A stretch of 64,000 nt of DNA from Lama guanicoe (Eukaryota): the NCBI GenBank assembly GCA_013239625.1, contig MU053652.1, forward strand, positions 4,641,902-4,705,901. Reading direction: 5' to 3'. The position numbers were made by a program, and so were the translations under genes. Within the stretch, counting starts at the first letter, position 1. Each line of letters opens with the position of its first letter. The notes below the pieces were generated by a model. That model was not told the DNA's origin and made no database searches. It saw only the letters and a program-made list of their open reading frames with translations. Below are positions 1 through 63,999 of the stretch, one piece after another.

Positions 1-330
<330 letters not shown>

Positions 331-623
331 GAAGGACAGGTCCCACCATCCAAGTCCTCTTACCCCCGCAACCTCTAACTTCCTGAAACCGGGCTCAGAT
401 GCCACGTACCCTGCTTTGGTTGGGGGATGCAAATGGGCACTGTGCAAAGGGTTCAGTGCTTCGCTGCATTTGGGAGCAGGTCGGAAAAAACGATCCCTAA
501 AATCTTAGCCCTGGATCTGACGTCAGCTACACACCAGATAACACCTGGTCCAAGTGGCTCCAACTCCTGGGATTCAAAATGTGCCTGTTGGAGTCCATGT
601 CCAACTTTGCTTACTCCTCCTAG

Positions 624-704
624 CCGTTTCCTCCTAGAACTATCCATCTTCAGAGTCTCAGTGGCAGGTGTAGGTGTCCAGATGGACTGCCTCCTCAGAG
701 CCGG
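624..704 (+). CDS. IMPDH1: IMPDH1 alternative cassette exon, 81 nt, frame-preserving
   Basis: tag|C...GG|gtgagg; encodes (S)RFLLELSIFRVSVAGVGVQMDCLLRA(G), resembling the AGVGVQMD segment of long human IMPDH1 isoforms. Confidence 0.55.
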
Positions 705-3700
705 GTGAGGACACCATCCCCTCCTCACCAGTCACTGAAGTCTGATGAGGCTGCCAGTGCAGTTCACCCTAGGGTCTCTCCTAAGATTCAGAACCCACTT
801 CTGCCCTTACTCTGCTGGAGTCTGTAAGGGTCACAGGAGGAAGAGTGGGGGTGTTGAGCTGGGCCCCAGGGGACTGGCTGAAAAGAAGACAGTGGCTAAT
901 CTCTGGATTGTATCGCAGCTTGAAATGCAATCCCACTGTCCTTCCGGTCCAGAGGATTTGGGCTTCTTTTTCTGCCCCATCTGTTGGTGTTCAGCAGCCT
1001 GGAGAGGTGACCTGGAAGCTGGGTTTGGGGTTCGGTGGAGGTGGGGGGGTCTGCCGGAATTAGCTCTGCAGCTCTGCCCAGGGGCTGGCTGCTTATGTAA
1101 GAACTTTTAACGGCTTAAGAGGCTGCTAGGTGAAGCCTGGCCTCTCCTGCCCCCGCAGGCTGTCTCTCTAGAATTGACTTAATTTCAGGCAACTCTATCT
1201 TTCTTCCCACCCAGAAATCCAACTACTGGGGCTCAGGGTAGATAGACGATAGAGAGGCCACAGGAGGTGAGGGAGTGTGCTGGGGCACATAGGGGCTTGA
1301 AGGAGGCAGTGCCTTGGTTGGAGCAGGTATTGCACAAGTACCATTTCAGAGTTCAGATCAGGGCCGGCAGAGGCATCCCTTCTCCAGATTGTACTTCTGC
1401 ACTGAGGGGCTATCTCCACCCTACCAGCCTGTGTAAAACCTGACACCCAGCCAGGTGGTGTAGTGAGATTCAAAACCTGCTGCCTAGACCTCCATCTGCC
1501 CTCACTAGCTTAGAGCTGTGGGAAGAGGACAAGGTATCATGAGAAGTCTGAGTTTGAGGCCAGAGTTATTGCTCTCTGGCCTGAACCTGGGAAAACTATG
1601 TCCCCTATCCCAGCTCAACAATGTCAGGGTTATTACCCACTCCCCGCCAACTCCCCCCTCAAAGGTGTTTTGAAATCTTGTCCCTTCAAATAGCCCAGAC
1701 TAGAAACAGACCTCTGGGCTCCCTGTCGGGACCTTGGTCCCCAGCTAGTCACTGTTTCCCCTCTATCCTGAGGAAGGGGCCTAAAGGGGCTTGGACCTAC
1801 TCTCTCGCCCTGCTGCCCTCACAGCTGCTAGGTGGGGAGCCTCAGGGGACCCACAGCCCTTCCTTGAGCTGAGGAGTCCCTCTGGTTGCCTGGTGTCTCC
1901 TCCCCATGGAGGAAGCAGCTGGGGAAGATCAGGAAAAGGGAGGAGGAAAGCGGGGGTGGGGGGTGGAGGGTGGGGGGTGGATTAACAGTCTCCGGAAAAG
2001 GACAGCCTAACCCAGGGCTGAGCCCAGCAGCTTAGAGTAATGAGGAGCCCTGACATAGGTCAGAGCAGGAGAGGGTGTGGGGCAGCAGGAGAAGGGGAGT
2101 GGTGCTGTGACACCTGTCACCACTGGGAAGAGGACCCTCCACACAACTCAGCCTGGCAGCCTCCTCCCCTGGTTCTGAGTTCTAGGCTGGGGCAGATGTC
2201 ATACTAAGGCCATCTGAGATGGCAGAACTCAGCTGCTGTCCTGGGCCCCAGTCCTGGTGGAACCCTGAAGAGTACTCTAGCCATTCCTGTGACCCAGAGC
2301 ATGTCCATCTGAGCCCCAGAGAAATCCAGGGGCAGCCTGTGCACTGTGCCTGCAACTGCCATTCCATCACCATCCTTCTACGGCCAGAGAGTTGCCCAGG
2401 ACAGCTTTGAATGGCCAGTGCTTTCTCCAGCTGGTTTCACTGCTCTGCATGCAGGTGGCCAGTAAGAGGTCCTAGTGCTGGTCCCCTTAGGGTAACCCCC
2501 TCCCCATATGGCCTAGGCCCTCTGGATGAGTCTGTGAGTGCCCAGGGGACAAGTGCGCCCCAGGCATCCCTGGCAAAGCTAGCCCCAGCCCGCCCTCAGC
2601 AGAGAACCTTGGCAGGCCCGCTCCCTCCTTCCCAACACCAGAGAGCCTCCAGAGGCCCCTATCAGGAGCCTCCTTGGGCTCCCTGGGTGGAGAGGGAAGT
2701 TTGGGGTTCCATGATTTTCTGGTCCCCCACAGTAAGAGGACAGACAATGCTGTGGACTTCTGTGAGTCTCCTGCAGCACTCTCAGCCTCATGGGCCTCAT
2801 TGCCCTGGCTCTGTGGAAAGCGTCCCCTCCCCTCTGCACACAGATGGAACAGTCTGTGTTTTCCTGGCAGGGTCCCGGGGCGTCACTGGGAGAGGCTGGG
2901 CATCCCAGGGAGCCTCCCTTGGGCCTGGCTGCTACCACACTGCTGAGAGGTAAACAAATCCAGCCTCAAGGGCTGGGGAGGGAGGGAGAGCCACAGGCAG
3001 CCACCTTGCCAGGAAGAGGACCTTGTCCCTGGCCCACCTTTCCTTCACCTCACCAAGAAATTAGCTGTAGAGACTATAGGACAGAGGAAGGATACGTGGC
3101 ATCTGGGCAGGGGGGATCTGTTTTCTAGCTTTTGGTCAGGGAATAGCATTTATAGTTCTGGTCACATAAGGGGGAAGAGTCTGCCTGCCCGCTGCCACCC
3201 CATCTACCCCCATGTGAATCAGTTTGCTACCTAAACTTACTACCTTCATGCAGAAATCTGGGTCTTGCTGGGCACTCAGGGCCACCAAATTTCTGCTTTG
3301 AGAAATTCTCAAAACTTCTCTAGTCTCTGTCCTAATTTGTATGTATCCTTACTTGCCTGAGCCAAGCCTGTGACTCTCCCTCACCTTCCCATCACAATAC
3401 CCTCCCTAATAAAACCAAACTTTCCTCTCTGAGGTTAAAACCCCTGGTATCCACACCACTTTCTGAGCTGTGGATAGGGCAGGATGTCAGTCTGAAGCAC
3501 TGGACCAGGACTCAGAGGCAGTACCTGTCCCCACTCCCTCCTGAACTGTAGGTTTTGCATCTGCAAAGTGATGATACCTAATAATTGGCAATTAATGAAT
3601 TGTACAGTAAATGTGATCACTTATGAAAAGTGCCTTGTAAATTGCAGAGGGCTCCAAGGCCACGCAAAGGTCAGGAAGTGTCATTGTTAAGAATGCCTAC

Positions 3701-3899
3701 CCCCTAGGAATGATACCTGGTTGTGGGGAGCAGGGAGGTGGGTGCACTGCCCTGAGGATGCAACTTCAGACTCGTGTATGTTAGGAAGCTGTGAGCCCAA
3801 GCCAGTTCCTCAGGGCTCTGGGCTCTGATTAGAGTCTGGGCCTTAGTCTTGTGTAAGGCAAAGGATGTTAGAGGACCCCTGGGGCCAGGGAGTAGAGCC

Positions 3900-14896
<10,997 letters not shown>

Positions 14897-14918
<22 letters not shown>

Positions 14919-14997: not shown

Positions 14998-15593
14998 ATG
15001 GTCCACAGATTTGCACTACTGGATCCCCAGCTCCTTTCCAGGGAGAGAGGAGGGGGCGCCCTGAGGGTCTGCGACCCCTCCCTGGGCCTCCCCCGCAGTC
15101 AGGACTGCTCCCAGGCTGGGCTGCCCTGGGAGCCCACCAGGTTCCCCTTTCTTCAGTCCCCCTGAGCCCAGCCAGCCTGGGCTCTCAGGCCCTGCGCCTG
15201 CCTCAGGTCTTTCTCGCTGCAGCCTGCTCCGGCCCGGCTCCCACTCCTGGGGCAGGTGGCCCCTCCCGGCTTCTCCTGTAGGGCACCTCCTTCCCTACCC
15301 CCCACCCTGGAAATGGTGCTCTCCTGGCCCCTTCCTGGGCTGCTATCCTCTCAGCCATGTGGCACTTCTGGGCTCCTGACTTAGGCCAGAGGGAGGTCTC
15401 TGCCCCCTTCCCCTGGCCCTGCTCCTCAGGCCACTCCCCCATCCCCAGCCCTGGGGAAGAGGCGGCCCATCATTCCTGACTCACCCCCCACCCTATGTGT
15501 ACCTTTCCTGCCCTCTCCTCTCAGCTGCGGTCGAAGGCTTTAACTTTGCACACTTTGGGGTCACAGTTGCGTCATTGTATGTTAAATAATCTG

Positions 15594-15599
15594 AGTAAA
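15594..15599 (+). terminator. IMPDH1: Probable IMPDH1 polyadenylation signal (variant AGTAAA)
   Basis: Best poly(A)-signal-like hexamer in an AU-rich patch at the end of the GC-rich 3'UTR. Confidence 0.5.
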
Positions 15600-15695
15600 T
15601 CAAGAGGTTTCAATGCCTCTGCCATCCTGTCTCTGTCCCTTGTCCACTGGGCAGCTGGCCCCTATCCTGGAGGTGAGCTGGAGCCCAGAGCCCCA

Positions 15696-16060
15696 TCAGA
15701 GCCGGGCCAGAGGGACCGCGAGACCCAGCCTCCGCAGGAAGGTGGTGAGGGTGTGGCGGTACTCCAGGGGGTGCTGGCGCAGGTGGGCTGCGTGGCGTGA
15801 GGTCTCCCAGGCCTGTGCCCACACCGGCATGCCCAGCCGCTGCCAGCTGGCCAGCAGCTCGTGCAGGCGGGCACTATCGCAGAGGGGGTCATCGTGGCTG
15901 TAGAAGACTAGCGTCGGGGGCCTCACAGGCGGCTGCCAGAAAGCGCCCACTGCAGCCTCATAATGCCGAACAGTGCAGCCCGGGCACATGTGGAAGTAGA
16001 GCATGGCTGTGGCCTTGACCACCGGGCCCAGGGCCTGCGGTCTTATCAGTTGAGACACAC
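15696..16060 (-). CDS. TMEM53-like gene, last coding exon
   Basis: VSQLIRPQALG...PTLVFYSHDDPLCD...AWETSRHAAHLRQHPLEYRHTLTTFLRRLGLAVPLARL*. Confidence 0.85.
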
Positions 16061-18304
16061 CTGTGGGTACCAGGCAGAGGGGGTTAGTTCCCATTGTCAG
16101 GTGCAGCTCAGGACCCACCACCCAGTCTCAACACCCTCCTGGTGGGGATAGCAGTGACACGTGGGCCGCTGAGTATCCCTAGAGTTGGGGGTCCTGGGAC
16201 ATTCATATTGCCTTCTCTGTCTCTGTTGTAGTTGGGCAGTGGGCACCCAGCTGTCCTACCAGGTACAGACACCACTTGGGGCAGAAGCACGGGAGATGGC
16301 CTGGGAGTGCTCTGGTGGCAGGAAGGCACAGAGGATGCAGAAGGCCCTCGTTGCGGGTAGTGAAGAGCTGGAAACATCCCCACAACTGCCTGAGAGGGGC
16401 TGCCTCAGCCCACTCTTGGCATCCCCTTCCGGTCCCTGCCCTCTCCCACACCCTTCCTAAAAGAGCCACCTGGCCTGGAGTTAGCCTCCCACTGAGACAT
16501 TTGCCAACTTTGTGGCATCTTCAAAGACGAGAAGGAAAGAGCTGGATGGCAGGACTTTGGGTTGGGGTCAAAGCTGGTTCGACAACTGCTCCAGGAATTG
16601 TTGCAAAATGACTGGGTCGTTGAGAGTCACTGGAGGCCTTGAGTCCTGGAATCTGCGGCCTTGGTGAGACCCTCGGAGTCCCAGGTGACCCATCTGGGTG
16701 GGAGAAGGATGCCAAGGGATAGTAAAAGATGAGAGGAGATGGACCAAAATGAGGCCATGTTTCATGGTTTGTCTTACACCTTGGTTTACAAAAACCATAC
16801 AGGGTGCAGCCTGTCGAGCAGTTGAGATGGAAAAGATCTAAGGGTTTTTGGAGAAATGTCAAGTTGGTCTGCATCAAGGGGAAATTTTCCTTCTGAACTA
16901 GACCTAATTGGTCAATTAGAATGGGTTACTTTATAACAGTGACCTTCCTGTTACTTGAGGTATGTTAGCATTAGTTTGGTCCTTATAGAGGAAGTTACAT
17001 CACAGTGGTCCTCAAATTCCAGTGTCTATCAGAATCACGTAGAGAGCTAAAAAATGAACACAGGGGCCCAGGTTCACTGGAGTAGGATGAGGTCTGGGCC
17101 TCTGAATCAGCACGCAGCACCAAGTGATTCTGACGCACACCCAAGTTTGAGAATCAGTGCTTTAGAGGAAAATCGTGTAGCCAATCACAGTTGACCCTTG
17201 AACAATGTGGGGGTTAGGGGCACTGACCCTCTGTGCAATCAGAGATCACATATAACTTTACAGTCAGCCCTCCATATCTGCAGTTCTGCATCTGTGGGTT
17301 CAACCAACCGTGGATTGTGCAATGCTGTAGTACATATTTATTGGGGAAAAAACCCTGCTTAAGTGGACCGACGCAGTTCAAACCTGTGTTCAAAGGTGAA
17401 CAGTACATTATTTCTGAGACTCTTTCCCAAGCATGTGTCCTAAGAATTTCAGAAGACGCAGCACCTACCCCATGGCCTCACTGTGGGGACTATGTGAGAG
17501 TCTGTATGGAAGGTTCTAAGCGCTCAGTAAATTAGCCTTATTTTGCCTATTTGTCCTCCCCGTCCCTAGAAGAATAGAGGCTGGAGATGAACGCATGCCA
17601 GGCTGGTCCCAGACAACACGCTCACTCTGGGTTATAAATTCAGCTGCAGTGGGGGAGGCCCGGGGGGGACAACACGACAGGAAGGCAGGAAGGCCACGCC
17701 AGGTGGACATTCAGAGGCAGCCCAGAGCCACTTTTGGAACAGATGCAGATCACAGACCCCTTGGTCAGCAGTACTGCGTGGCCACCTGGAGTCTAGCCTG
17801 GTTTGTGTGGCTCCGGTGCCCCCTCACCCTTGCCCCGGCACACTCACCCAGTGCCATGTGGTCCAGGCTGCCCACCACCAGGCTGTCGAAAATATGACCC
17901 CTCAGGCGCTGGGCCACACTGCTGTGGCGCCCCCGGTCCTGGCCCATGAGCAGGAGCATCTGTGCAAAGGTGTAGCCACCCAGAGAGAGCGCGTGCACCA
18001 CCAGCGGGCGGCTGGCCAGGGCCCCGGGCCCCCGCAGCAACGCCAGCACGCGGGCAGCCCGCCCCAGGCCCCGGCGCGGGCACAGGAAGTGGCTCAGCGC
18101 GCTCTCCACGGCCAGCACGTCAAAACCGCAGGCCAGGTAGAGCTGCAGATACTTGGCCTGGGCGGCTGGCTGTGCCCCCAGCCACGGCAGGAGCAGGAGC
18201 AGCGGGCGGGGCCCGGGGGACCCTGGGGGGCCCGGCTTGCAGTACAGGTGAATGGAGCGGGAGAGCCGGGTCACCGTCACGTCGGCAGGTAGCAGCGGGG
18301 CCAT
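15696..18304 (-). CDS. TMEM53-like (DUF829) alpha/beta-hydrolase, spliced CDS 18304-17848 + 16060-15696 (822 nt, 273 aa), C-terminal -ARL
   Basis: gtcATGG Kozak; donor G|gtgagt and acceptor cccacag|GT in matching phase 1; motifs PLLLLLPWLG, HALSLGG, GHIFDS, FYSHDDPL, SRHAAH. Confidence 0.85.
17003..17159. mobile_element. MER5-like hAT-Charlie MITE
   Basis: Terminal inverted repeats cagtggtcctcaaa ... tttgagaatcagtg; internal atcagaatcac. Confidence 0.6.
17188..17403. mobile_element. Tigger2/MER8-like MITE (TcMar-Tigger)
   Basis: TIRs cagttgacccttgaaca ... tgttcaaaggtgaacag followed by TA. Confidence 0.7.
17848..18304 (-). CDS. TMEM53-like gene, first coding exon (acceptor at 18316)
   Basis: MAPLLPADVTVTRLSRSIHLY...PLLLLLPWLGAQPAAQAKYLQLY...LVVHALSLGGYTF...GHIFDSLVVGSLDHMAL(G); tctgtcctccag acceptor 12 nt upstream of the ATG. 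Confidence 0.85.
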
Positions 18305-18949
18305 GACTGGTGCACCCTGGAGGACAGACCGAGCAGAGGTGGTGGGTGGCCCCCCCGGCTCTGGCTCCACATTCCCCCACACGTCCGCTTTCAGACGGCA
18401 CAACTGGGTAGCTCAGGAGGGGCCGGATTAGCCCTTTAAGCTTCTGTGAATCTAAGGCCAATCAGGAGCTGGACAGCCAGCCTGGAGAGGAGGGGTCAGA
18501 CCCCAGCTGCGGGCTACTCAGCTGCCCTCCATCTCTCCCTCCACCCCTTCTTCTCACATCCGGAAATGGGGTCTGGAGAGGAAGAGGGACCAGCCATGGA
18601 GGGTGGGGAGAGGCATCTCCTCCCTCCACACTTGTGAAGAGCCTTTTTGCTCCTTCAGGATCCCTCCTGGCTTGTAGGGCCAGACCCCAACCCCAGCCTC
18701 TCTGGGACCCCCTCTGCTTGCTTTACCCACAGGCCCCCTTAATAGGGGTAGGGGACCAATTCTATCCACTTCAGTGCACCCCCAGCAGCCCTTCTACCTC
18801 CAGCTGAGGAGTGTTTGGAGTCAGGGCATCTGGTCAGAGCACTAGCCAGGGTCAAAGCACGCAGCCCCCGGAAACCTCTCCCAGCCCCACCACCCGCTCC
18901 TGACACCTACTGTCCTCAGGGGACAGAGCCTGTAAACTGCCGGACTCAC

Positions 18950-19070: not shown

Positions 19071-21039
19071 ATTAGCTTCTGGGCTGGGAGCCAGGGTGTC
19101 TGGTTCCCAAGTCAGCTACATCCCCAGCCCAGCTAAAGTCGGGAAGGAGGCATGTGGGTTGCGAGGTGCAGTATTACCCTGGGACGCGTAGAGACTAGCC
19201 TTCCCCCATCTCCGTGTGCCTCAGTTTCTCTACTTGTGATCCACCAGGGAAAGAGGAGCACCCCCAGGCACCACAACAGCTTCCTGTCTTTTGACCCCAC
19301 ACATCAGCTGCTCCACCTCACCCTTCACCTTCAGGGCAGGCTGACCTCAGGATGGCCACACACAGGGGCTGCCTCAGGCAGGAATCCAACTCAGGAGACC
19401 AGGTCTCATAGCTGAGGGCTTTCTGCTTCTCCTTCTTCCGCCCCTGAGAGGTTCCCTTTGAGGCAGGATGATCTGAGGGCTCCAAGAGGTTTGTCTGACA
19501 TGCTGTCAAGGTAGGGAGAGGGGTTCTCCCCAGAGAAGAAAAGAGAAGTCGGGACTAGGGCATTAGGGGCTGAGCGGCTGAGAAGGAGGAGGGAGCCAGG
19601 AGGGGATGTTGCGTAAGGACCTGGCTGTGACCCCATACGTCACTCTTCCACCCCCCAGTTTTAACCTTTCCCTCCCCACTGCTTCCTCTCGGTGGAAAGC
19701 GGACTACTGGGAAACAAAACGTGTGTCCTCAGGAAATCAATTAAGGGGAGGGACTTCCTTCAGACCACACGCTACCAGGAGTCTTGCTCCTTGGTCCTCT
19801 CTGTCCTTCTGTGTGGGAAGAATGTTGCTCCCACCCCTCCCTGGGGTTCACAGTGCTTCTAACTACTTTCTATGTCCCTGTCTCTGCGAAAAATCTAGGG
19901 ACACAGATGAGGGAGGGGCCTTTTATGGTGGAGATGTGGGGGTCTGGAGAGGGGGTGGAGGGTGGATAAGAGGGGCGGGGTAGAGGGTGTTCTCTGACAC
20001 AGGATGCTGCACTCCCAGGTCTGGATGCTTTAGGAGCAGTGTGACACTGTATCCAGAAGGTGGCGCCAGAACCCATCGACCTGTGGGACCCCAGGGAACA
20101 AGACTGGGGCAGTTTCCTAGGCAACAGGCAGCCTTTCTGAAAGCCCTGCCCTTGGCAACCATTCCGTGGTTGCCCAAGCCTGTAGTAAAATTTGGTTTCT
20201 GAAGGACAGTAGGGGCATGGGGGTAAAATAATCTAATCTCTCAGAAAGGAGCGAGGCTGCTGAGGGTGGGGAGGGGAGTCTGAAAGACCCGCTCACTGTT
20301 GTCATGTATTACTAAGCACTCATTACACCACTGTGGTAGGTGTCTTACCCTCAGCAACACTATGACTCAGTCACACATATTCCTTTGTTGTGGATGGGGA
20401 GAATGAGGCTCAGAGAGACGAAGTGACTTGCCAGAGTCACCAGCTGATACCAGGTGGACCCATTTAGGAAGCTGGGCCTGCCTGGATGTTCCTCTCCATT
20501 CCACTACACCTCCTGGTGGGTCTGAGGTGTCCAAGCCCCCAAAGGAAGCTGGTGTGAGGCGGGTTCTGGAGGCCAGGCCTGTTGGGAGACCAGGAGAGCA
20601 GTGGTGTTGATGAATTCTTCCCTTTCAGCCCAGCTGTCCTTGCCTGACCTGGGTGAGGCGCCTCTCTACTCAGGGCTCCCCTCACCTTGCAGGGGGCTCC
20701 CCTCTGTCAGAGGACCACAGGGTTGGAGGGAGGGGATTTAGGGATTCTGGAGATTATGTGAACCCCCGAGAGAAACCAAGGACAGGAGAGCTCTCCAAGC
20801 AGGGCACAAAGCTGGAGCCCAGGACTATTCTGGGGAGAAGAGGCAGGAAAGGATTCTATTTCAGCAGTTGTGCAGAGGAGAAAACTGGCTTCAACTGGGT
20901 CAAGACAGAGATTTGGAGGATTCAGATTCAGTTCAGTGAGGTAATCTACTCACTCCCCTGTGATCTTATCTCTGCCTACTCCGCATCTCCACCAGGATAT
21001 TAAATAGGATCTTATACTGAACGTAACCAATACCAAACT

Positions 21040-21318
21040 TTTTTTTTAAATTTATCTTTTTAAAAATTTCTTTTCTTTCTTTTTCCTAAATGGAAGTAAC
21101 AGGACCTCATGCATGCTAGGCATGCCCTGTACCACTGAGATATACCTACCCCCTGCCCTGATTTTTTAAAATTCTTTTTTGTTTTTTTGAGGGAGGGGAG
21201 GTAATTAGGTAGGTAGGTTTATTTGTTTGTTTGTTTGTTTATGATGGGGGTACTGGGGACTGAGCCCAGGACCTCGTGCGTGCTAGCACACACTCTGCTA
21301 CTGAGCTATACCCTCCCC
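21040..21318 (-). mobile_element. Two tandem tRNA-derived camelid (vic-1-like) SINEs
   Basis: Reverse complements of the gggaggg-tatagctcag-...-gtcctggg head, each with a T-rich tail. Confidence 0.75.
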
Positions 21319-22475: not shown

Positions 22476-23532
22476 TTACTTATTTGTTTATTTAAATTTA
22501 GGTATAGTTGATTTACAATGTTGTGTTAGTTTCTGGTGCATAGCATAGTGATTCTATTATACATATATATATTCTTTTTCATGTTCTTTTTCATTATAGG
22601 TTCATTATTGCAAGCTGTTGAATATAGTTCCCTGTGCTATACAGTAGGATCTAGTGGTTTGTCTATTTTATATATAATAGTTTGTATCTGCTAATCCCAA
22701 ACTCCTAATTTATCCCTCCCCCCTTCTTTCCCCTTTGGTAGCCATAAGTTTGTTTATGTCTGTGAGTCTCTTTCTGTTTTGTAAACAAGTTCTTTGTATC
22801 AGTTTTTTAGATTCCACATATAAATGATATCATATGATATTTATCTTTCTCTGTCTGACTTACTTCACTTAGTATCATAATCTCTAGGTCCATCCACGTT
22901 GCTGCAAATGGCATTATTTCATTCCTTTTTATGGCTGAATCATATTCCATTGTATATTTGTATCACATCTTCTTTATCCAATCAACTGTTAATGGACATT
23001 TAGGTTGCTTCCATGTCTTGGCTATTGTAAATAGTGCTGCTGTGAACACTGGGATGCATGTATCTTTTTAAATTAGAGTTTCCTCTGGATATATGCCCAG
23101 GAGTGGGATTGTGGGATCATAGGGTAGCTCTATTTTGAGTTTTTAAAGGAATCTCCATACTGTTTTCCCTAGTGACTGCACCAAATTACATTCCCACTAA
23201 CAGTGTAGGAGGGTTCCCTTTTCCCCACACCCTCTCTAGCATTTTTTATTTGTGGACTTCTTAATGATGGCCATTTCAACTGGTGTAAAATACCAGTCAG
23301 AATACTGGTATACCTCATTGTATACCATTGTATGCCAAATACCTCATTATAGTTTCTTTTTGGAAGAGGGTTAATTAGATTTACTTATTTATTTTTAGAG
23401 GAGGTACTGGGGATTGAACCCAGGACTTCATGCATGCTAAGCATGTGCTCTACCACTTGAGCTGTACCCTCCACCTCCCTCACTGTAGTTTTGATGGTAT
23501 TGAGCATCTTTGCGTGTGCCTTTTGGCCATCT
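22476..23532 (-). mobile_element. 5'-truncated L1 (3' end) inserted in an L2, with a SINE inserted inside it (about 23356-23477)
   Basis: L1 3'UTR and ORF2-end sequence; imperfect TSDs catcctgtttgtttat / catcctctctgtttat; SINE flanked by cctcattatagttt / cctcactgtagttt. Confidence 0.8.
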
Positions 23533-26194: not shown

Positions 26195-26268
26195 CATGGA
26201 GGTACTTGGGATTGAACCCAGGGCCTTATGCATGCAAGGCATGTCACTGAGCTATATCCTCCGCCCCC
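26195..26268 (-). mobile_element. vic-1-like SINE
   Basis: ggaggtacttgggattgaacccaggg...actgagctatatcctcc. Confidence 0.7.
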
Positions 26269-35299: not shown

Positions 35300-36060
35300 G
35301 CGGTTCTGCCCGGGGTGCCGTCCTGGGCAGGCTGCCGGGTGTGTGCGCGCGCGCGTGTGAACACGCGTGTGCGCGTGCGGTGCTCTGGCCCGCGGTGTGT
35401 TTCCCGGGGAGGGCGTGGAGTGAGTATGTGTGTGATGGGCCGCCCTGGGAGCGTGCGGCTGTCGGCGCCAGGCTGAGCCCCCCGCGGCTGGTCGGCAGCG
35501 CCGGGTGAATAAGCGCGCGTGCGGACGCGGGCACAGAGGCCGCGGCGGCTCGGGGCTGCGGTGCGCGCCCGCCTGCCGGCTGGGTAGGGGGCGGACCGCG
35601 GGCCGCCGGCCGGGGGAGGAGGAGGGGAGAGGGCGGGCGGCCGGGGCGGGCGCGCGGGAGGCGGGGAGGACCGGCGGGCGGGAGGTCAGAGCGGGGCTGC
35701 CGCGGAGCGCGGCGCGGGTGGCTCTGCCGGGGATAGAGGCTCGCAGCCGGGAGGCGGCGCCGCGGGAGGGGGCGCGGAGCACGAGCCGGGCCGGGCCGGG
35801 CAACCCGCCGGGGGCCAGCGCTGCGGGCCGGGGCCGGGCCGCGCCAGATCCGGGACCGCGCGACGGCGAAGCCACGGTGGCCGGGACGAGCCGAGGGGGC
35901 GTCGGGCGCGGAGAGCACCGGCCAGACACGGCGGAGCGTTGCCCAGCGGGGCGCCTGGGCCTCCGCGATCGCCCCTTCTCGGGGGACTTGGCTGAGGAGA
36001 CCCGCCTGCGGGAGGAAGCCAGAGGAGCAGGTCGGCCGTCAGGGCACGGGTAGCGGGAGG
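35300..36060 (+). promoter_or_regulatory. PRRT4: CpG island: PRRT4 promoter and probable non-coding exon 1
   Basis: CpG-dense with GC boxes, 1.3 kb upstream of the PRRT4 ATG exon; candidate donor CAG|gtcggc at 36030. Confidence 0.75.
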
Positions 36061-37361: not shown

Positions 37362-38013
37362 ATGGCAGGGTATGGCTGTCTGGGGCTGGGGCTGTTCTGC
37401 TGGGTCCTGCTTGCAGTTCCCGTGGGCCCCCAGCCTGCCTCCTCTGTCCCAGGTGCCCATCTCACCACTCTGACCCCACCACCTCAGAGTGAGGCCTCTA
37501 TGCTGTCTCTAAACCTGGGACTTAACTTCAAATTCCACCTTCGGGGACCTGCTGCTGCTTGGGGGAGCCCTGTCACAGAGACCCAGGCACTTTCTCCCGG
37601 ACCGAGCCGGGAGCCAGAGGAAGAGGTGGACAGTGGGCTGAGGACTGACCCCTTTTGGGAACTGCTGGTGGGCTCTCTTAGCAACTCCCCCCCAGAGTGG
37701 GGCTCTGCTGAAGGCAGCTCTACCCCCTGGTCCTCCTCCCTGCCTCTGGAGTCCACATCCCTCCTCTCTGGGCCCACTGACCGGCCCACTGCTCCCTATC
37801 AGCCCAGGATGGGCACTGTGACCTGGGATACTGCTCTGACAGCTATAGCACCTCCATCCAGTGCTCCCAGGCTCCACCAGAGCGAGCTGGAGCTGAAGTT
37901 TGACATGGCGCTGAGAGCAGGTGCAGCCCCCACGCTCGGGCATCGAACGCTGCCCCTGCTGCCCAGCCTGCGGGCCAGCCTGGCAGAGATTGCTGGGCGC
38001 CTGGGACCCTTTG
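37362..38013 (+). CDS. PRRT4: PRRT4 first coding exon (acceptor at 37289/37290)
   Basis: gccATGG; ...SLNLGLNFKFHLRG...LAEIAGRLGPF(G); donor gtgagt. Confidence 0.94.
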
Positions 38014-41000
38014 GTGAGTACCCACCCCATCCCAAGGAGAACCCATGCTGGGCAGTCTGGCAGGTAGGACGGAGCTTCAGCCTGGCTCCTTTTGCAGGGT
38101 TCTTTGGCACTACCCTGTCCCCTCTCCGGAACTTATCAGGCCCAAGCACCCCAAGCCCAATTACATCCCCAAGCTCTGCCTCCAGAGTTTCGGATTCTCC
38201 AGGTGAGTGTTTATTTCACTGCAACAAACATTTATGGAACACCTCTATATGCCTGGTGCTGTGCTAGGGGCCTAACCAGCATCTCCCTTTCCCCCGTGAT
38301 CCAAGGGTGGCTTGCACTGCTTCTCCCAGGCTCTGGGACACTAGTGACTGCTCCCATGGAGAAATGCCCTCTTTGCCATACTGAGTCTGGTTTGGTCCTT
38401 GTAGCTTTGCTTCTGGAGTGTATGTGGCTACAATTCCGGGGACAGTGGTTCCCTTAGGTCAAGCTCTGGGAAAGGATAGGGTTTTCTCCAAAGCCCCAGA
38501 GGCCAAGGCTGGCTGATAGCTTGGTACTCGAGTCCTATGTGCTCCATTTGCAGGGTTCTTTGGCACCACTCTGTCCCCGCCCCCATCCCCCCTGGAGAGA
38601 AAGCCCCCAAGTCCAAGGCCACTGGACGCAGCTGCTTCCCTAAGCCCTGCCTCAACTGCAACAGCCTCTCTAGGTAAGTGTCCAATTTATTTGAACTTAA
38701 CAGTTATTTATTGAGCACTTTCTACATGCTAGCCACTCATGGGCATTCTGGGATCCTCCTATTTCATTGCCGTCATAATCATGATCACCATTCTCTTCAT
38801 CATTACCATGGAGATATGTACTAATGGTCTGAGAACAAGTGTTGCTGGGCACGGTCCCACACAGAGTTAAGTAATGGTCCTCTGGAGTTTTGCAATCATA
38901 GGCAGAGCAGGATGTAGACAGATGTATCAGGGGCAAACAGACACAGGAACTCCTTCATGATTTCCACAGCCTCAGCACTAACCCCACCCTGCGCTCCAGT
39001 CTGCCTGGCCTGCCTCCCCACCCTCCCACTCCAACCTTGGGGCTCTCTGCTTTGCCATCTGATCTGACGTGACATGCTGTCAGATATGGACAGAGCTGGG
39101 CTCCTCATTGGGAAGACGTTGAAGAGGAGACCTTGAGCAGACAGACGCCATCTTTGTTCAAGGGAGCCTTTCAGAACATGCACAGAGACAAGCGGGTGGT
39201 GCGGAGGAAAGATCAAGGGCTCTAGAATCTTGAGACTTGACTTTGAATCCCAATCCACTGGTGACCTTGGACAGGTTATTTAACTTCTCTGAGCCTAAAT
39301 TTTCTCATATATCTAGGGTTTAAGAATAGTGCCTGTTTTGTTATTGTAAAGCTTCCAGATAATGTAAGCTCCTGGCATGAGGCTGGGCACAAGGCATTGT
39401 CTCATTAAATAGTAGCTGTTAACCTTGCTTCTTCCCCCACTGAGTCCCAAATACATGTCCAGACCCCACCTCTCAGACACTGCAACCCTAGCTCCACAAA
39501 TGTGATGGGACAACATGTAATCCACAAGGCAGGGGGCACACTGCTCTGGCAGAGGTTCTGGCAGGTGAGGCCAAGGGAGCCATGCAAAGGGTTAACTGGG
39601 CCTGGAAATCCTCTCAGCCTCCTCACATTAGGAACTGGCTTAGCAGTGGAAACCACTGGTCCCTGAGTTTCTCCCAGCTCCAGCCTTAACACCTGACTGT
39701 CCCTCACTCCTGAGCGGTCACAGTATTCCCAGGCATGTGGAAGACCAGCCCGCCATCCCCTCCCCATCCAGGCAGTGGCAGGCTCTGTGGCCGCAGGGGA
39801 AAGATGCTGCCTGGCGGTCTGTCAGCCTTGGTGACAGCGCTGGCCAGGCAGGTTTAATGAGTCTGGACAGTATCAGAGGCAGCCAAGCCAGTTGGTGGCC
39901 CCACCCTCCTTCCCCCTCCTCACCATGGCTACAGGAACCCAGCCTCTTCCTGGCTGTTCCTCTTGGATAAACCCAGGAGAGCCTCAGACCTCCTGGAGAG
40001 AAGGCCAAAAGCCTTGTTTGCACCAGCACCCCGTGTGGGGAGTAGTGTGGCAAGTAGAGGATAAAGGGGGTCTCTCTGTGTATTCTCTAGGAACTTCCTA
40101 AGCTGGATGCGGTTAACCTTTTACCATAGGGCTTCTCTTTTTTACATTAGGTTCCTTTCACCTTGGACAGAGCTTGCGTTCACCCAGTGCACACTGGGAC
40201 AGTTGTGCAGGTCGTTAACATATTGAAAGACTTTCATATCAGTTGATGAGTATCCACTGCCCTTATCCCCCTGAGCACCCCTCCACTCCCTGACCACCTG
40301 ACTGGCAGCTGTTCTGAATGGCTAAAAATGGTGGTTAAATATTTTGAATGTCACCCTTAAAGAGTATCAGTCCTCTGTGATCCTGTAGGTGGGGGTGGGG
40401 AGACAGTTGGGGCCAGGCCACTGAGCAGGCTGCAGCTTCCGGCATCCAGAGGAGAGAGTGATTCTCCACCCCTTTGATCTGGGCAGCTAGTGGATAATCA
40501 GGTCTGACTTTTCCATATATCCACCCAGGGCCTCTTCCCAACTCCTCCCCAATCAGCTCCAGCCTCACCAGTTACTCACATGGACATCTCATCTCCTCCC
40601 TCGCACCTGAGGTCAACAGGGACCACAGGGCCAGAGTGGGACCACTTTGTAAGGGAGGCCTGCTCAGGAGAGGGATCCTAGGAACTCACTATCTTCTACG
40701 GGAAACTGAGGGCCCCCACTGAGGAAGCCTTGAATAGAGAGACAGAGGATGAGCTCAAGGGGACTCTTCAAAGGCAGAAGCTGGGACTTCTTTTTGACTG
40801 ACCTGACCCACACCAACCTAGTGCAGGGCACACCGGGCCAGCCCTGCCCCCAGGGAGCAGTGCTCCTAGGCCAGAAATCTTTCTGCTGACACTTGAGCTG
40901 GGGTTGTACTTTGCCTATTTTTTGGTTTTTATTCTTCTGTCTTCTTAGGAATGTTGACATTTACTCTTGTTGCCATAATGCTTTGGGGCAGAGGTGAAAG

Positions 41001-42652
41001 ATGGGGTTTCCTATGGCCATTGAGTGAGGAGTGGAGCTGGAAGAGGGTTGGTTGGAGCAGACCTCTGAGAGCTGTACTTGTCTGTACAGTGAGTAGTGGG
41101 GAGGTATGAGGGGCCACAGGCTGACACAGGCTGTGGGCTCCTGGCCAAGGTCTTCCTGCCTCTCTGCAGAGCCCACTAAAACCAAAGAAAGACCAAGGAG
41201 AATCATTCATCTTGCAGAAGTGGGTTGAGCAAGGGCATCTGAGGGGACCAAACTATGAGGGGTGAGGGAGGGTGTGTGTGTGTATCTGATTCCATTCATG
41301 TCAGACTGACCCCAGCCCCCACCCACAACAGCAAGCCATTCCCACCTGAATGATTCCTCATTTAATTCACCGCTTTGTCTTCAGTAAGTGTTCAGGGATG
41401 GTCAGTCCATCCAAATGGTGTTCTTTAAACAAGGTTCACAGAGGGAGACAATGCATTGATGTTCACTCATTTGACTAATTGTTGACTTTCTAAGCAAGTT
41501 TAGGTTGCGCTAAGGGACAACGGCCTTGTGTTAGTTAAGTCAAGAATTAGTTTGAGGCCAGAAATGGTCACACACACAAATACACACTGATGATTGATGA
41601 GTGATAAACATTAGCCCATAACGATGATAATAACAACAGTCATATATTGGAAGTTTATTACGCACCAGGCACTCCAAAGAGCTTTCCACACATCAGCTAT
41701 GTATCCTCGTAACAGCCCTATGCAGTCAGTGCTCTTCCCTATTTCATACTGGAGGAATGTGATGGGACAGGAACCAGAGAACATGCTGCCATTTGCAGTA
41801 GTCAGCGAGCTATATATATGTAATTTTTTGGCAGCACCCTCTCTGCCCTCCCCAGTTGCCCAGTTCTACCTTCCCCACCCCTCTCTCCAGAGCTGCTTTC
41901 TGGCCCTCTCACTCCTTTCCGTTGTTCTCAGGACTGCTCTGTTTTGCATGTGCCCAACACTAGCTGGCACTGACTGGGGTAGGGTTGTGCTCCTGGGGTC
42001 TTCCCCTTTTGTCCAGCTGAGACATGGCTGGACTTGGCCAGGCAGTTGGGGCAAGAATCTGGTTGTCAGGAGACTCTCCCTGTCTCATTCTACATCTGGG
42101 ATCCCCTTATCTTTCACTGCCGTCTTTTCCCCACCATCCTTGCCTGCGCTGCAGTTCTGTTGAGCCTGCTAGATGGGGTAGGGAGGTTCAGTCTGGCCAT
42201 GAGGAAAATCCTTCAGTCTAATTCTTTCTCACTCCTCTCTTGCTCCAGGAGAGAAGAATTAGAGATCTTAGTCCCACACTCTTTTACTTGACTTTCCTTC
42301 CCAAGGGATGTGGGGAATATGTTAGAACACAGGATGGGGCTGGGAGCCTAAGTTAGCAAACCCCAGAGCACCTGAGGGGCTCACTTGCTAAGATGGCATT
42401 TTATCCTACTATGATCTCCCCAACTATTCCTTCCTGGGAGTTCAAGGGACTCCCAGGGGAGTCCATTTTAATGTCACCTTCTGTAAAAGGGGGCTGAGAA
42501 CCAAAAGGGTATATATATTAAGAGCCTCAGACCAATGGTTTTGTGGTTGCATCAGAATGGGGACCACGGCCATGGGTAGGGCGAGGGCTGAGGGTGTAGC
42601 AAGCAGGAAGACCAGTGAATAGGAAAGGCTGTGCTTTTTCAGGGTGCTAGGG

Positions 42653-42689
<37 letters not shown>

Positions 42690-45242
42690 ACGTGTGCATA
42701 CTGGCTTTTCCTGAAGAGACAGGGAGAAGGGGGAAGCAGTTGAAAAAAGGCAGGAGAAACTTCTTCTAGCACCAAGGTAGGAGTTGGGATTCAGGGGTGC
42801 AGAACAAGAGATAAGAAAACTAGTATTAGGAAGAGGCTGATGGAAAAGAGCTCAGACTGGTGCTCAGATTTGAATTCGAGTTGCAGCTCTGCGAATTTGT
42901 AACCGTGGACAAATCACTTTGCCTCTCAGCAGTACCACAATTTCTTCATCTGGCAAATAGGAGGATTCATTTATTCAATGAATATCTGCTCAGTGCCAAC
43001 TCTGTGTCAGGCACCACTTTAGGCATGGATATTCAGATGTAAGCAAAGCAAACAAAAATCCTCATTCTTCCAAAGCCTCCTTCCTGGTGGGAGGATTGAA
43101 CTAGAGGGGGCTTCTACACTTCCTTCCAGGTGTAAAATTCTGTGACCTCCTGAGAAAAACTCTTTTCAGTGGAATCACAGGGTAATGAACAAAGCAGAGA
43201 GCTGGGGGTGTGGTGGGGTGAGGGAATGAAGAGGGGTGCAGCTGGAAGAGTTTGATGGGAAAGGGAAAGATGAGGGGCTGGGAGGTCGTGAGTCTCCTGT
43301 TTAAGACAAGTCCGTCCTGGATGCTATGAGGACTCTCTGGCATACAGGCTGTGGGCTGTGGGGTGGGCATAGGGAAGGCTGCACGACCGCCTCAGACAAA
43401 CGTTCTTTGCCCACAGACTCCACCACCTCCACCTCTGGCCTGGATGACCCCTCTCCCGCCAGCCTTGGGAACCTTTCGGTGCAGCCAGAGTGTGGGCCAG
43501 GGTCCTGCAGCATCAGAGAACTGCCTGAACGCGAGGGGCAGCCTCCTGCGGCCCCGCTGCCCCTCTTCTTCCTGACCCTGGAGGCCGACTGGGCAGAGGC
43601 CAAGGCTCGCTGGGGGCTGGCCTGGGAGGCCCACGTGTACGGGGTAGGCGCGCTCTTCGGCCTGGTGGCCCTGCTGGCGCTGCTGGCACTGGCCCTCTTG
43701 CCTTGGCGCTGCCCGCCCGGCGCCCCCTGCCTGGCGCTGCTGGACCTGCTCCTGCTCTCGGCCGGGGCCACGCGGGCCTTCCCGCTCTTCTACGACGCCT
43801 ACGGGCACCGCGATCGGCTGCCGATTCTTGCCTGGCTGCTGCTGCAGGACCTCCCTCTGCCCTGCCTGGCCGCCGGCCTGGGCCTGGCCTGCCTACTGCT
43901 GGCTCGGCCGCGCCCGCCGCGGTGTCCTGCTGGCCTGGCCGCGTTGCTGCTCCTGGGGCTGGGGCTGGCGGCGGCCGCCGCCCTCGGAAGCGCGGCCCAC
44001 CGCCCGCTGAGGGCCCTGCGGCTCGCCTCCCGCGGGCTGCACGCCTTCCTCGCCGCCCTCCTTTCCGGGCTCCTGCTGGCGCTCTCCTGCCTGGGGGGCC
44101 AGCGGCGGCGGGCCGGAGCGCCCCTAGGAGGGTCGGGCTTCAAGGGCGGCACTCCTCTCCCGCAGGCGCGCAGCCCCTTCGGCCCGCGCGAATCCTGGCG
44201 GCGCGCAGCGCGCACGGCCCCTGTGGCGGGCACCTTCGGGCTGCTCAGCGGAGCCCTGCAGGGCTACGAGGTGCTGCACGCCCTGGGCTACGGCGGGCAA
44301 CCCGGCCTGGAGGGGCCCTGGCCCTGGTGGGCCTTCCAGCTCGGCCTACGCCTGGGCGAGGTGGGCGTCGCGCTCCCGTTAGCGCTGCTGGGCCTCTACC
44401 CGGCGCTCTGCAGCCCCCGCGTGCCGCCGCGCTGCTGGGCCAAGCTCTTCCGCTTGTCCCCCGGCCACGCCGCCCCGCTGCTGCCCGGAGGCTGGGTCAC
44501 CGGGCCCCCGGACAAGAAGCCCCTGGGGAGCGCCATCGAGCGTGGCGACGCGGAGCTGCTGCAGCTGTGCGCCCTGGCAGGGCCAGGCCCCGACCTCTTA
44601 CTCCAGGGAGGCGGCTGCCGGGGCTTCGAAGGCGCAGCCGCCAACCCGGCCCCTTCCCCGGCCTCCTCCCCCTGCAGCGATTACACCGTGGACTTCCGCC
44701 CGCCCTCCCCCATCAACCTGCGGCGCAGCATCGAGGAGGCCCTCTGCAGCGAGGCCCTGCTGGCGCCCGACCTCTTCCAGGGCCCTGCCTTCGGGGAAGC
44801 CCTGCCTGGGCTCGGCCTCTTTCGCACCATCTCGCTGGGAGCGCAGACCCGGGCCGGGCCCAATGGGAGGTCTGAGGAGGCCCCTGGCTCCCCCGTGCCC
44901 CCCGAGCTCCCCTCTCCCGGAGCCTGGCCCGCGGGCAGCAGCGCCTCATCAGGCTCGCTGTGCGGACTGTCGCGGGACAGCTCGTCCATGCTGCTTTGCT
45001 CCAGCCCGGACAGGCCGCCACGCTGTCCGCTGGTCTGCGTCCTCAGTCCCCCTCGGCCCTCAGGAAGCAGCCCTAGCCTCCCGGCCTCAGGATCCTACCA
45101 GGCCTTGTCCCCACCCTCCCGCGACTCCCCGGAGCCTGCTCCTGAGCTGCAGGCCGAAGAGGCCTTGCTACAGGAGCAATTCCTGGACGCCTGCCGACAG
45201 ATTGACGAGCTGAGCGTGGGCAGCGACACCATAGACCTGTGA
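37362..45242 (+). CDS. PRRT4: Proline-rich transmembrane protein 4, spliced CDS (4 exons, 2703 nt, 900 aa)
   Basis: 652+105+120+1826=2703; signal peptide MAGYGCLGLGLFCWVLLAVPVG; multi-pass TM region; C-terminus RQIDELSVGSDTIDL*. Confidence 0.95.
38098..38202 (+). CDS. PRRT4: PRRT4 coding exon 2
   Basis: GFFGTTLSPLRNLSGPSTPSPITSPSSASRVSDSP; cag/gtgagt. Confidence 0.92.
38554..38673 (+). CDS. PRRT4: PRRT4 coding exon 3
   Basis: GFFGTTLSPPPSPLERKPPSPRPLDAAASLSPASTATASL; cag/gtaagt. Confidence 0.9.
42657..42687. repeat. (GT)n microsatellite
   Basis: About 15 GT units. Confidence 0.9.
43417..45242 (+). CDS. PRRT4: PRRT4 last coding exon (TM domain and cytoplasmic tail)
   Basis: Acceptor cccacag|AC; ...LFFLTLEADWAEAKARWGLAWEAHVYG...SDTIDL*. 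Confidence 0.96.

Positions 45243-49949: not shown

Positions 49950-63999
<14,050 letters not shown>

Follow-up and report, generated by a model that had tools for sequence, protein, structure and literature searches.

A predicted peroxisomal serine hydrolase of the DUF829 family encoded between IMPDH1 and PRRT4 in the guanaco

A two-exon gene on the minus strand of a 64,000-nucleotide stretch of the Lama guanicoe genome (hereafter the window) lies between IMPDH1 and PRRT4, tail to tail with the former and upstream of the latter, and encodes a spliced protein of 273 amino acids (Table 1). From sequence comparison and a structure model we infer import, catalysis and substrate class, and we consider it probable that the product is a soluble, lipid-directed serine esterase or thioesterase of the peroxisome. 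The gene structure is read directly from the DNA, the fold comes from the model, and conservation of the catalytic triad and of the C-terminal tripeptide is established by alignment. Specifically, we hypothesize that this protein, a member of an ancient DUF829 subfamily of animals (the si:dkey-5i3.5 group), acts as a soluble serine hydrolase with an alpha/beta fold, and that PEX5 would recognize its C-terminal PTS1 and import it into the matrix of the peroxisome. Once inside, Ser107 would be activated by His242 and Asp210 and would attack an ester or thioester carbonyl to yield an acyl-enzyme that is released by water. The loop formed by residues 40-43, together with residue 108, would supply the oxyanion hole, and an amphipathic helical lid (residues 147-194) would enclose the hydrophobic chain of the acyl group. 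Such an enzyme would most likely trim or recycle a lipid ester or an acyl-CoA alongside the peroxisomal oxidation of fatty acids.

The spliced open reading frame is intact (GC3 0.84), begins in the context CCAGTC-ATG-G and ends in P-L-A-R-L-stop. Its translation is identical, letter for letter, to the Vicugna pacos RefSeq protein XP_072820645.1 ('uncharacterized protein', P0037). Because RefSeq already models the gene automatically, it is unstudied rather than hidden, the word used for the protein in an earlier note on this DNA. The motifs listed in that note (Ser107, Asp210, His242 and A-R-L-stop) are all found at the places it gave when the spliced frame is read, but its interval of 15696..17986 falls short as the extent of the gene, since the coding sequence starts at 18304. 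The donor at 17848 was chosen because it carries the consensus GTGAGT and agrees with the RefSeq model; alternative donors at 17842, which yields an in-frame 275-amino-acid variant, and at 17844, which breaks the frame, were set aside. The alpaca-form protein starts directly before strand beta1 and carries no N-terminal extension. An upstream segment matches an exon of a longer dromedary model, but the dromedary ATG is GTG here, and thus this segment is probably 5' UTR in the guanaco. Repeat and Rfam annotation revealed nothing relevant at the gene. Among sequencing runs, 24 are listed with words of 15500-18400, and the five recorded as RNA hold 0.48-0.52 of these words, which we do not count as evidence of expression. 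For shrew-like animals, full-length proteins that span the exon junction are encoded on Logan contigs of 1,796 and 1,252 nucleotides (P0016 and P0017), by which spliced RNA is indirectly implied in these species.

Table 1. Coordinates of the hydrolase gene, its predicted functional residues and other features (window positions unless another contig is named)
Feature	Position	Strand	Remarks
First coding exon	17848..18304	-	ATG to codon 153 base 1; strands beta1-beta6 and lid start; Pfam DUF829 E=3e-12
Intron, 1,787 nt	16061..17847	-	GT-AG pair 17847/16061; donor GTGAGT, acceptor ...CCCACAG
Second coding exon	15696..16060	-	lid remainder, beta7, beta8, last helix, tail, stop; Pfam DUF829 E=1e-10
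Segment matching upstream exon of longer dromedary model	19220..19258	-	tblastn 13/13 residues; candidate acceptor AG 18318-18317
P40-W41-L42-G43 loop after beta3, putative oxyanion-hole loop	18176..18187	-	W41 kept 218/233
Ser107, predicted nucleophile, codon TCT	17984..17986	-	A-x-S-x-G elbow between strand 101-106 and helix 108-122; kept 232/233; aligns with TMEM53 elbow serine
Asp140, end of beta6 (D-S motif)	17885..17887	-	structural residue or alternative catalytic acid; kept 232/233
Helical lid, residues 147-194, after beta6	15936..17866	-	split by intron; amphipathic, not membrane-spanning
Asp210, predicted catalytic acid, codon GAC	15888..15890	-	after strand 202-207; kept 233/233; aligns with FphH acid
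His242, predicted catalytic base, codon CAC	15792..15794	-	after strand 232-237; kept 233/233; aligns with FphH His
A271-R272-L273-stop, PTS1-type tripeptide	15696..15707	-	end of 10-residue non-helical tail
IMPDH1	249-14918	+	upstream exon ending near 249; canonical start 4382
PRRT4	37362-45242	+	last exon very GC-rich; CpG-rich stretch near 35300-36000
tRNA-derived repeat copies	21100-21316, 23399-23471, 26198-26268, 59881-59965		Rfam and ARAGORN
TMEM53 of this genome, last coding exon	L001:1474-2157	+	intact Ser-Asp-His set; S-N-A-G elbow

Pfam assigns only DUF829 (PF05705) to each exon and to the whole protein, which scores 86.3 bits across profile positions 1-242 of 242, where the curated cut-off is 25 bits over the whole profile. 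A genome-wide DUF829 search, in which all four candidates were scored (4/4), yields two loci, namely the hydrolase gene and a stronger locus on another contig. We take the latter to be the probable TMEM53 gene, an assignment that fits the published triad. TMEM53 (NET4) belongs to the same Pfam family, and all three of its triad residues align with those of the hydrolase at a spacing similar to the published Ser113/Asp220/His252 (PMC8317215). It differs in having its own locus, a strongly hydrophobic lid segment (top 19-residue hydropathy of 3.02, versus 1.54 in the hydrolase) and the C-terminus CVHC, which is not a PTS1. This separate locus, an identity of only 25% and the lack of a long hydrophobic segment rule out that our gene is the TMEM53 orthologue. 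The protein groups with records named si:dkey-5i3.5, both in searches and in a FastTree phylogeny, and its gene adjoins PRRT4; by sequence comparison it is the orthologue of zebrafish si:dkey-5i3.5. That gene has been described as adjoining PRRT4, RBM28 and leptin, in a tree rooted on TMEM53, with two copies in most teleosts, one in zebrafish and none existing in human (PMC4422726). The zebrafish protein (A5WVN0) and its fish and shark orthologues belong to the same subfamily (41-52% identity) and have in common with the guanaco gene the PRRT4 neighbourhood, a PTS1-type end (AKM in zebrafish) and the intron position. Mammalian and fish-like records have the intron at one and the same codon; among 15 hand-picked rows, 10 vertebrate-type ones read into it there.

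TMEM53, the sole characterized animal member of the family, is reported at the outer nuclear membrane and acts in SMAD and cell-cycle control (PMC8024261, PMC3077400). By this precedent the hydrolase could be a non-catalytic regulator at the nuclear envelope or ER, with its triad and tail being incidental. We consider this extremely improbable, given the long separate branch on which the 25%-identical protein sits, the missing hydrophobic segment, and the near-invariance of both the triad and the PTS1. TMEM53 was also tried as a root for the subfamily tree and rejected. Because its branch (2.73) is too long for the root position to be trusted, we claim no order of events among invertebrates.

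Conservation was assessed by collecting 269 proteins, of which 239 cover the profile and 233 are retained as full-length rows for the alignment and the FastTree tree; six that were gapped at the triad or much over-long were dropped (P0205, P0243, P0246, P0256, P0309 and P0333). The Ser-Asp-His order pointed out in the earlier note is near-invariant in these rows (232, 233 and 233 of 233). An AlphaFold2 model built from a 150-row alignment (pLDDT 94.9, pTM 0.92) has eight strands in canonical order, with the flanking helices that the alpha/beta-hydrolase superfamily requires. In this model S107, D210 and H242 are placed after beta5, beta7 and beta8, which is the canonical layout (PMC11878206). 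Other conserved residues include S141 (233/233) and H245 (220/233). The catalytic acid can migrate to beta6 in alpha/beta hydrolases (PMC11878206), and D140 is a minor alternative for this role.

Comparison with solved structures agrees with a hydrolase fold. The best match is the esterase Pf2001 (Z 19.6, rmsd 3.3, 237 residues aligned), and the Foldseek matches listed are mostly esterases and lipases. The substrate cannot be read from these matches because many of them are near-ties, with the top ones lying within about 2 Z units of each other. The bacterial and archaeal carboxylesterases FphH, Est30 and Pf2001, and the fungal peroxisomal acyl-CoA hydrolase MpaH (Z 17.2), have the same fold but are only 10-21% identical, do not define the substrate, and carry a G-x-S-x-G elbow whose first glycine is alanine here. 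A PDB sequence search with a 14-row profile found nothing significant, and a profile alignment pairs D210 and H242 with FphH chain positions 193 and 223 (E=7e-4). The FphH triad is Ser93/Asp190/His220 (PMC10644348), and we infer that the offset of 3 arises from a longer construct. Among the conserved columns a single switch stands out, in that Trp75, which is present in 99% of other vertebrate rows and in most invertebrate-type rows (70%), is Cys75 in placental mammals (12/12; window 18080-18082). Because it is the sole such switch, it perhaps reflects a change in the substrate pocket.

A Ser-Asp-His triad also supports transfer chemistry, for example of the BAAT/ACNAT type. The enzyme might accordingly be a peroxisomal acyltransferase that passes its acyl group to an amine or alcohol, as in conjugation, rather than to water. 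An additional subsite for this purpose could come from extra invariant residues (H104, D140-S141, H245 and several Tyr and Trp), and the yeast acyltransferase ICT1 is counted among DUF829 proteins (PMC11878206). No transferase signal emerges among the top structural matches, however, which are mostly esterases, lipases and unassigned hydrolases tied within about 2 Z, and we judge this activity improbable.

The case for a peroxisomal location of the predicted esterase or thioesterase is made by its last three residues. The ARL end falls within the PTS1 consensus [SAC][KRH][LM], which is the strict definition used throughout, and in the AlphaFold2 model it terminates a coil (residues 264-273) whose last residues have low pLDDT. 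Retention of a PTS1 by orthologues had been set beforehand as a test of the earlier proposal, and it is what we observe. Among the 18 rows from tetrapods and sharks (mammals, turtle, lizard, petrel, frogs and elephant shark), 17 terminate in a strict PTS1, the exception being the dromedary (AQL). The same holds for 62 of the 64 rows from holosteans and teleost copy A, where AKI and FQR are the exceptions, and for the lamprey row. These rows are kin and 90% clusters, and so are not independent trials. Outside the vertebrate clade, the signal is present in 44 of 105 rows, including amphioxus (ARL), Lingula (SKL), Owenia (AKL) and Thrips (SKL), and is lacking in 61, some of which may be truncated; most other rows in this group are assumed to be invertebrate. 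The untrimmed match list has a strict PTS1 in 79 of 120 entries. By comparison, the consensus occurs at 193 of 71,152 internal family positions (0.27%), and 0.6% is expected from the composition of the protein. A single ARL would be weak evidence, but its retention across the clade indicates that it is not due to chance.

The manner in which the tripeptide varies is similarly informative. It changes inside the consensus (ARL, AKL, SRL, SKL, CKL, AKM and SKM) while positions -4 to -9 vary, and it decays after gene duplication. Specifically, only 7 of 45 teleost copy-B rows retain a strict PTS1, and ends such as EKM, AEM, ADM, KTI and SNI are found in rows that keep the triad. Change within the consensus combined with decay in a duplicate is what a functional PTS1 should show, and from such a signal we would predict peroxisomal import. 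AKM, the zebrafish end, is also the PTS1 given for zebrafish Gstk1 (PMC8919083). Conserved PTS1-like ends need not import a full-length protein, as is the case for CDC5L, KCTD5 and LACTB2 (PMC8919083).

In another possible reading, an active hydrolase resides mainly in the cytosol, on lipid droplets or in mitochondria, peroxisomal import is weak or conditional through dual targeting, and the mammalian PTS1 may be a weakened remnant. For zebrafish si:dkey-5i3.5, the predictor score of -0.479 is in the 'twilight zone' and WoLF PSORT calls its isoforms mitochondrial or extracellular (PMC8919083 Table S4), and a shift to lipid droplets has been reported for TMEM53 (PMC8317215 supplement). Many fish, frog and invertebrate forms have basic N-terminal extensions. 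A basic residue occupies position -4 in 67 of 82 vertebrate rows, whereas mammalian tails lack it, the residues upstream of their tripeptide being hydrophobic, and the genus Camelus has AQL. Nevertheless, we find this explanation unlikely. The alpaca form begins just ahead of beta1 with no extension, AQL remains inside the broad PTS1 consensus used in PMC8919083, and without binding by PEX5 it is difficult to account for a tripeptide that stays within the consensus in vertebrates as distant as lamprey and mammals and disappears mainly in a duplicate. We also considered whether a basic N-terminus substitutes for PTS1 in non-vertebrates. The trend is weak (27 of 58 rows without PTS1 versus 14 of 43 with it), and it was not used.

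The teleost copy-B clade (for example P0027, P0118 and P0135) has a longer N-terminus in addition to its intact triad and mostly lost PTS1. We regard it as a candidate for organelle re-targeting after genome duplication. One tilapia-type protein (P0131) bears a ferret species label in one source, which is probably an error because the sequence groups with cichlids.

Among mammals, the distribution of the gene is patchy. Proteins of full length are on record for camelids, cattle, sheep, goat, deer, moles, desman, hedgehog, shrews, tenrec and colugo, and those from outside the camelids align with few gaps to the alpaca-type protein at 79-87% identity. The tree shrew record holds exon 1 only. The pig record changes frame near residue 44, the beluga record is disrupted after about residue 71, the gray whale record is partial, the fin whale record has deletions and loses its frame before Asp210, and in two fruit bats, Rousettus and Pteropus, the records likewise seem damaged. 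Two mammal-like exon-2 clusters (P0326 and P0342) read through the stop and lack a PTS1, and one Sorex record (P0011), which is outside the tree set, stops short of His242. The gene therefore appears to be broken in pig, three whales and two fruit-bat genera, judging from protein records in which assembly or annotation errors are possible. Because camelids, ruminants and colugo are intact while the records of pig, whale and fruit bat look broken and human is reported to lack the gene, the familiar species tree suggests at least four independent losses in placental mammals, counting human. No primate, rodent, carnivore, horse or marsupial orthologue is named among the matches listed (29 of 29, best 120 of 160, and 9 of 9), which falls short of proof of loss. 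No pattern of diet separates keepers from losers.

Differences also occur among close relatives of the guanaco. All three Camelus species carry R272Q, which converts ARL to AQL (window 15702-15704; P0003, P0034, P0035 and P0038), and have R254C and P200S in common, with R247C or R247H in some records. Camelus differs from alpaca at 7-11 positions, R272Q included. The shared substitutions possibly reflect relaxed selection or a weaker PTS1 in Camelus. Such changes, along with the broken-looking records, the human absence (PMC4422726) and the want of a common polyadenylation signal downstream of the stop (see below), might mean that mammals are gradually losing the gene, with the alpaca copy still intact because it was inherited recently, selection relaxed and expression very low. 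We give this account very little credence. Identity remains at 79-87% with few gaps across ruminants, moles, hedgehog, shrews, tenrec and colugo, the Logan contigs of 1.3-1.8 kb imply spliced RNA in shrew-like species, and the alpaca branch in the FastTree tree is very short (0.0045).

Parts of this picture have precedents in print. The triad and lipase hypothesis has been published for TMEM53 and DUF829 (PMC8317215, PMC11878206), and the PTS1 of the zebrafish orthologue is one row of supplementary Table S4 of PMC8919083. Thus, the earlier proposal of an 'undescribed peroxisomal serine hydrolase' gains support from the conserved PTS1 and triad as regards the hydrolase, but 'undescribed' is too strong. 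In the portions of the literature consulted, si:dkey-5i3.5 figures as a synteny marker and as one weak PTS1 candidate, and its function, triad and mammalian form are absent from those portions. Our literature search found no report of the subfamily as a peroxisomal hydrolase, of its survival in mammals or of its losses, and closed-access papers and supplements may hold more. ACOT4, BAAT, SERHL and EPHX2 belong to the alpha/beta-hydrolase fold class. These vertebrate peroxisomal proteins have a PTS1 in common with the hydrolase (PMC8919083) but are members of other families, whereas the hydrolase matches DUF829 only. The yeast peroxisomal matrix lipase LPX1, an alpha/beta hydrolase, is named in the DUF829 family (PMC11878206); we do not claim orthology. 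Yeast Lpx1 is absent among the 50 structural matches listed, which excludes nothing.

A broader reading, on which we are evenly divided, is that the gene encodes a second DUF829 enzyme ancestral to animals, namely an esterase, thioesterase or acyltransferase that acts on lipids in the peroxisomal matrix and serves an as yet unassigned step of lipid metabolism there. Such an enzyme would survive in ruminants, camelids, insectivores, birds, reptiles, amphibians and fish. Placental mammals would have lost it at least four times, leaving humans (and perhaps rodents) without it, and one of the teleost duplicates would have acquired a new address. Peroxisome inventories rest on human, mouse and rat, and an enzyme lacking in humans, and perhaps in rodents, would therefore stay invisible to them. 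If the reading is true, the animal peroxisomal matrix gains a new enzyme family. Human TMEM53 causes a sclerosing bone disorder, and its triad is only predicted; a soluble relative would make the chemistry of DUF829 proteins easier to reach. Likewise, the repeated losses provide a natural comparison for seeking the substrate, which may be a lipid handled differently in cattle and alpaca than in pig, whale and human.

The surroundings of the gene yield several further observations. IMPDH1 was identified by an exon match (E=3e-34), with its stop near 14918. It has a short alternative exon near 14284-14300, which we take to resemble the retinal 17-nucleotide exon 13b. A candidate poly(A) signal for IMPDH1, the variant AGTAAA, lies at 15594, approximately 100 nucleotides from the hydrolase stop codon, and the minus strand has no AATAAA or ATTAAA within 1.7 kb after that stop. 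Because of this arrangement, the IMPDH1 and hydrolase 3' UTRs probably overlap in antisense (15594-15696). Elsewhere in the window, the ARAGORN calls, like two Rfam tRNA matches, most probably represent SINE heads rather than tRNA genes.
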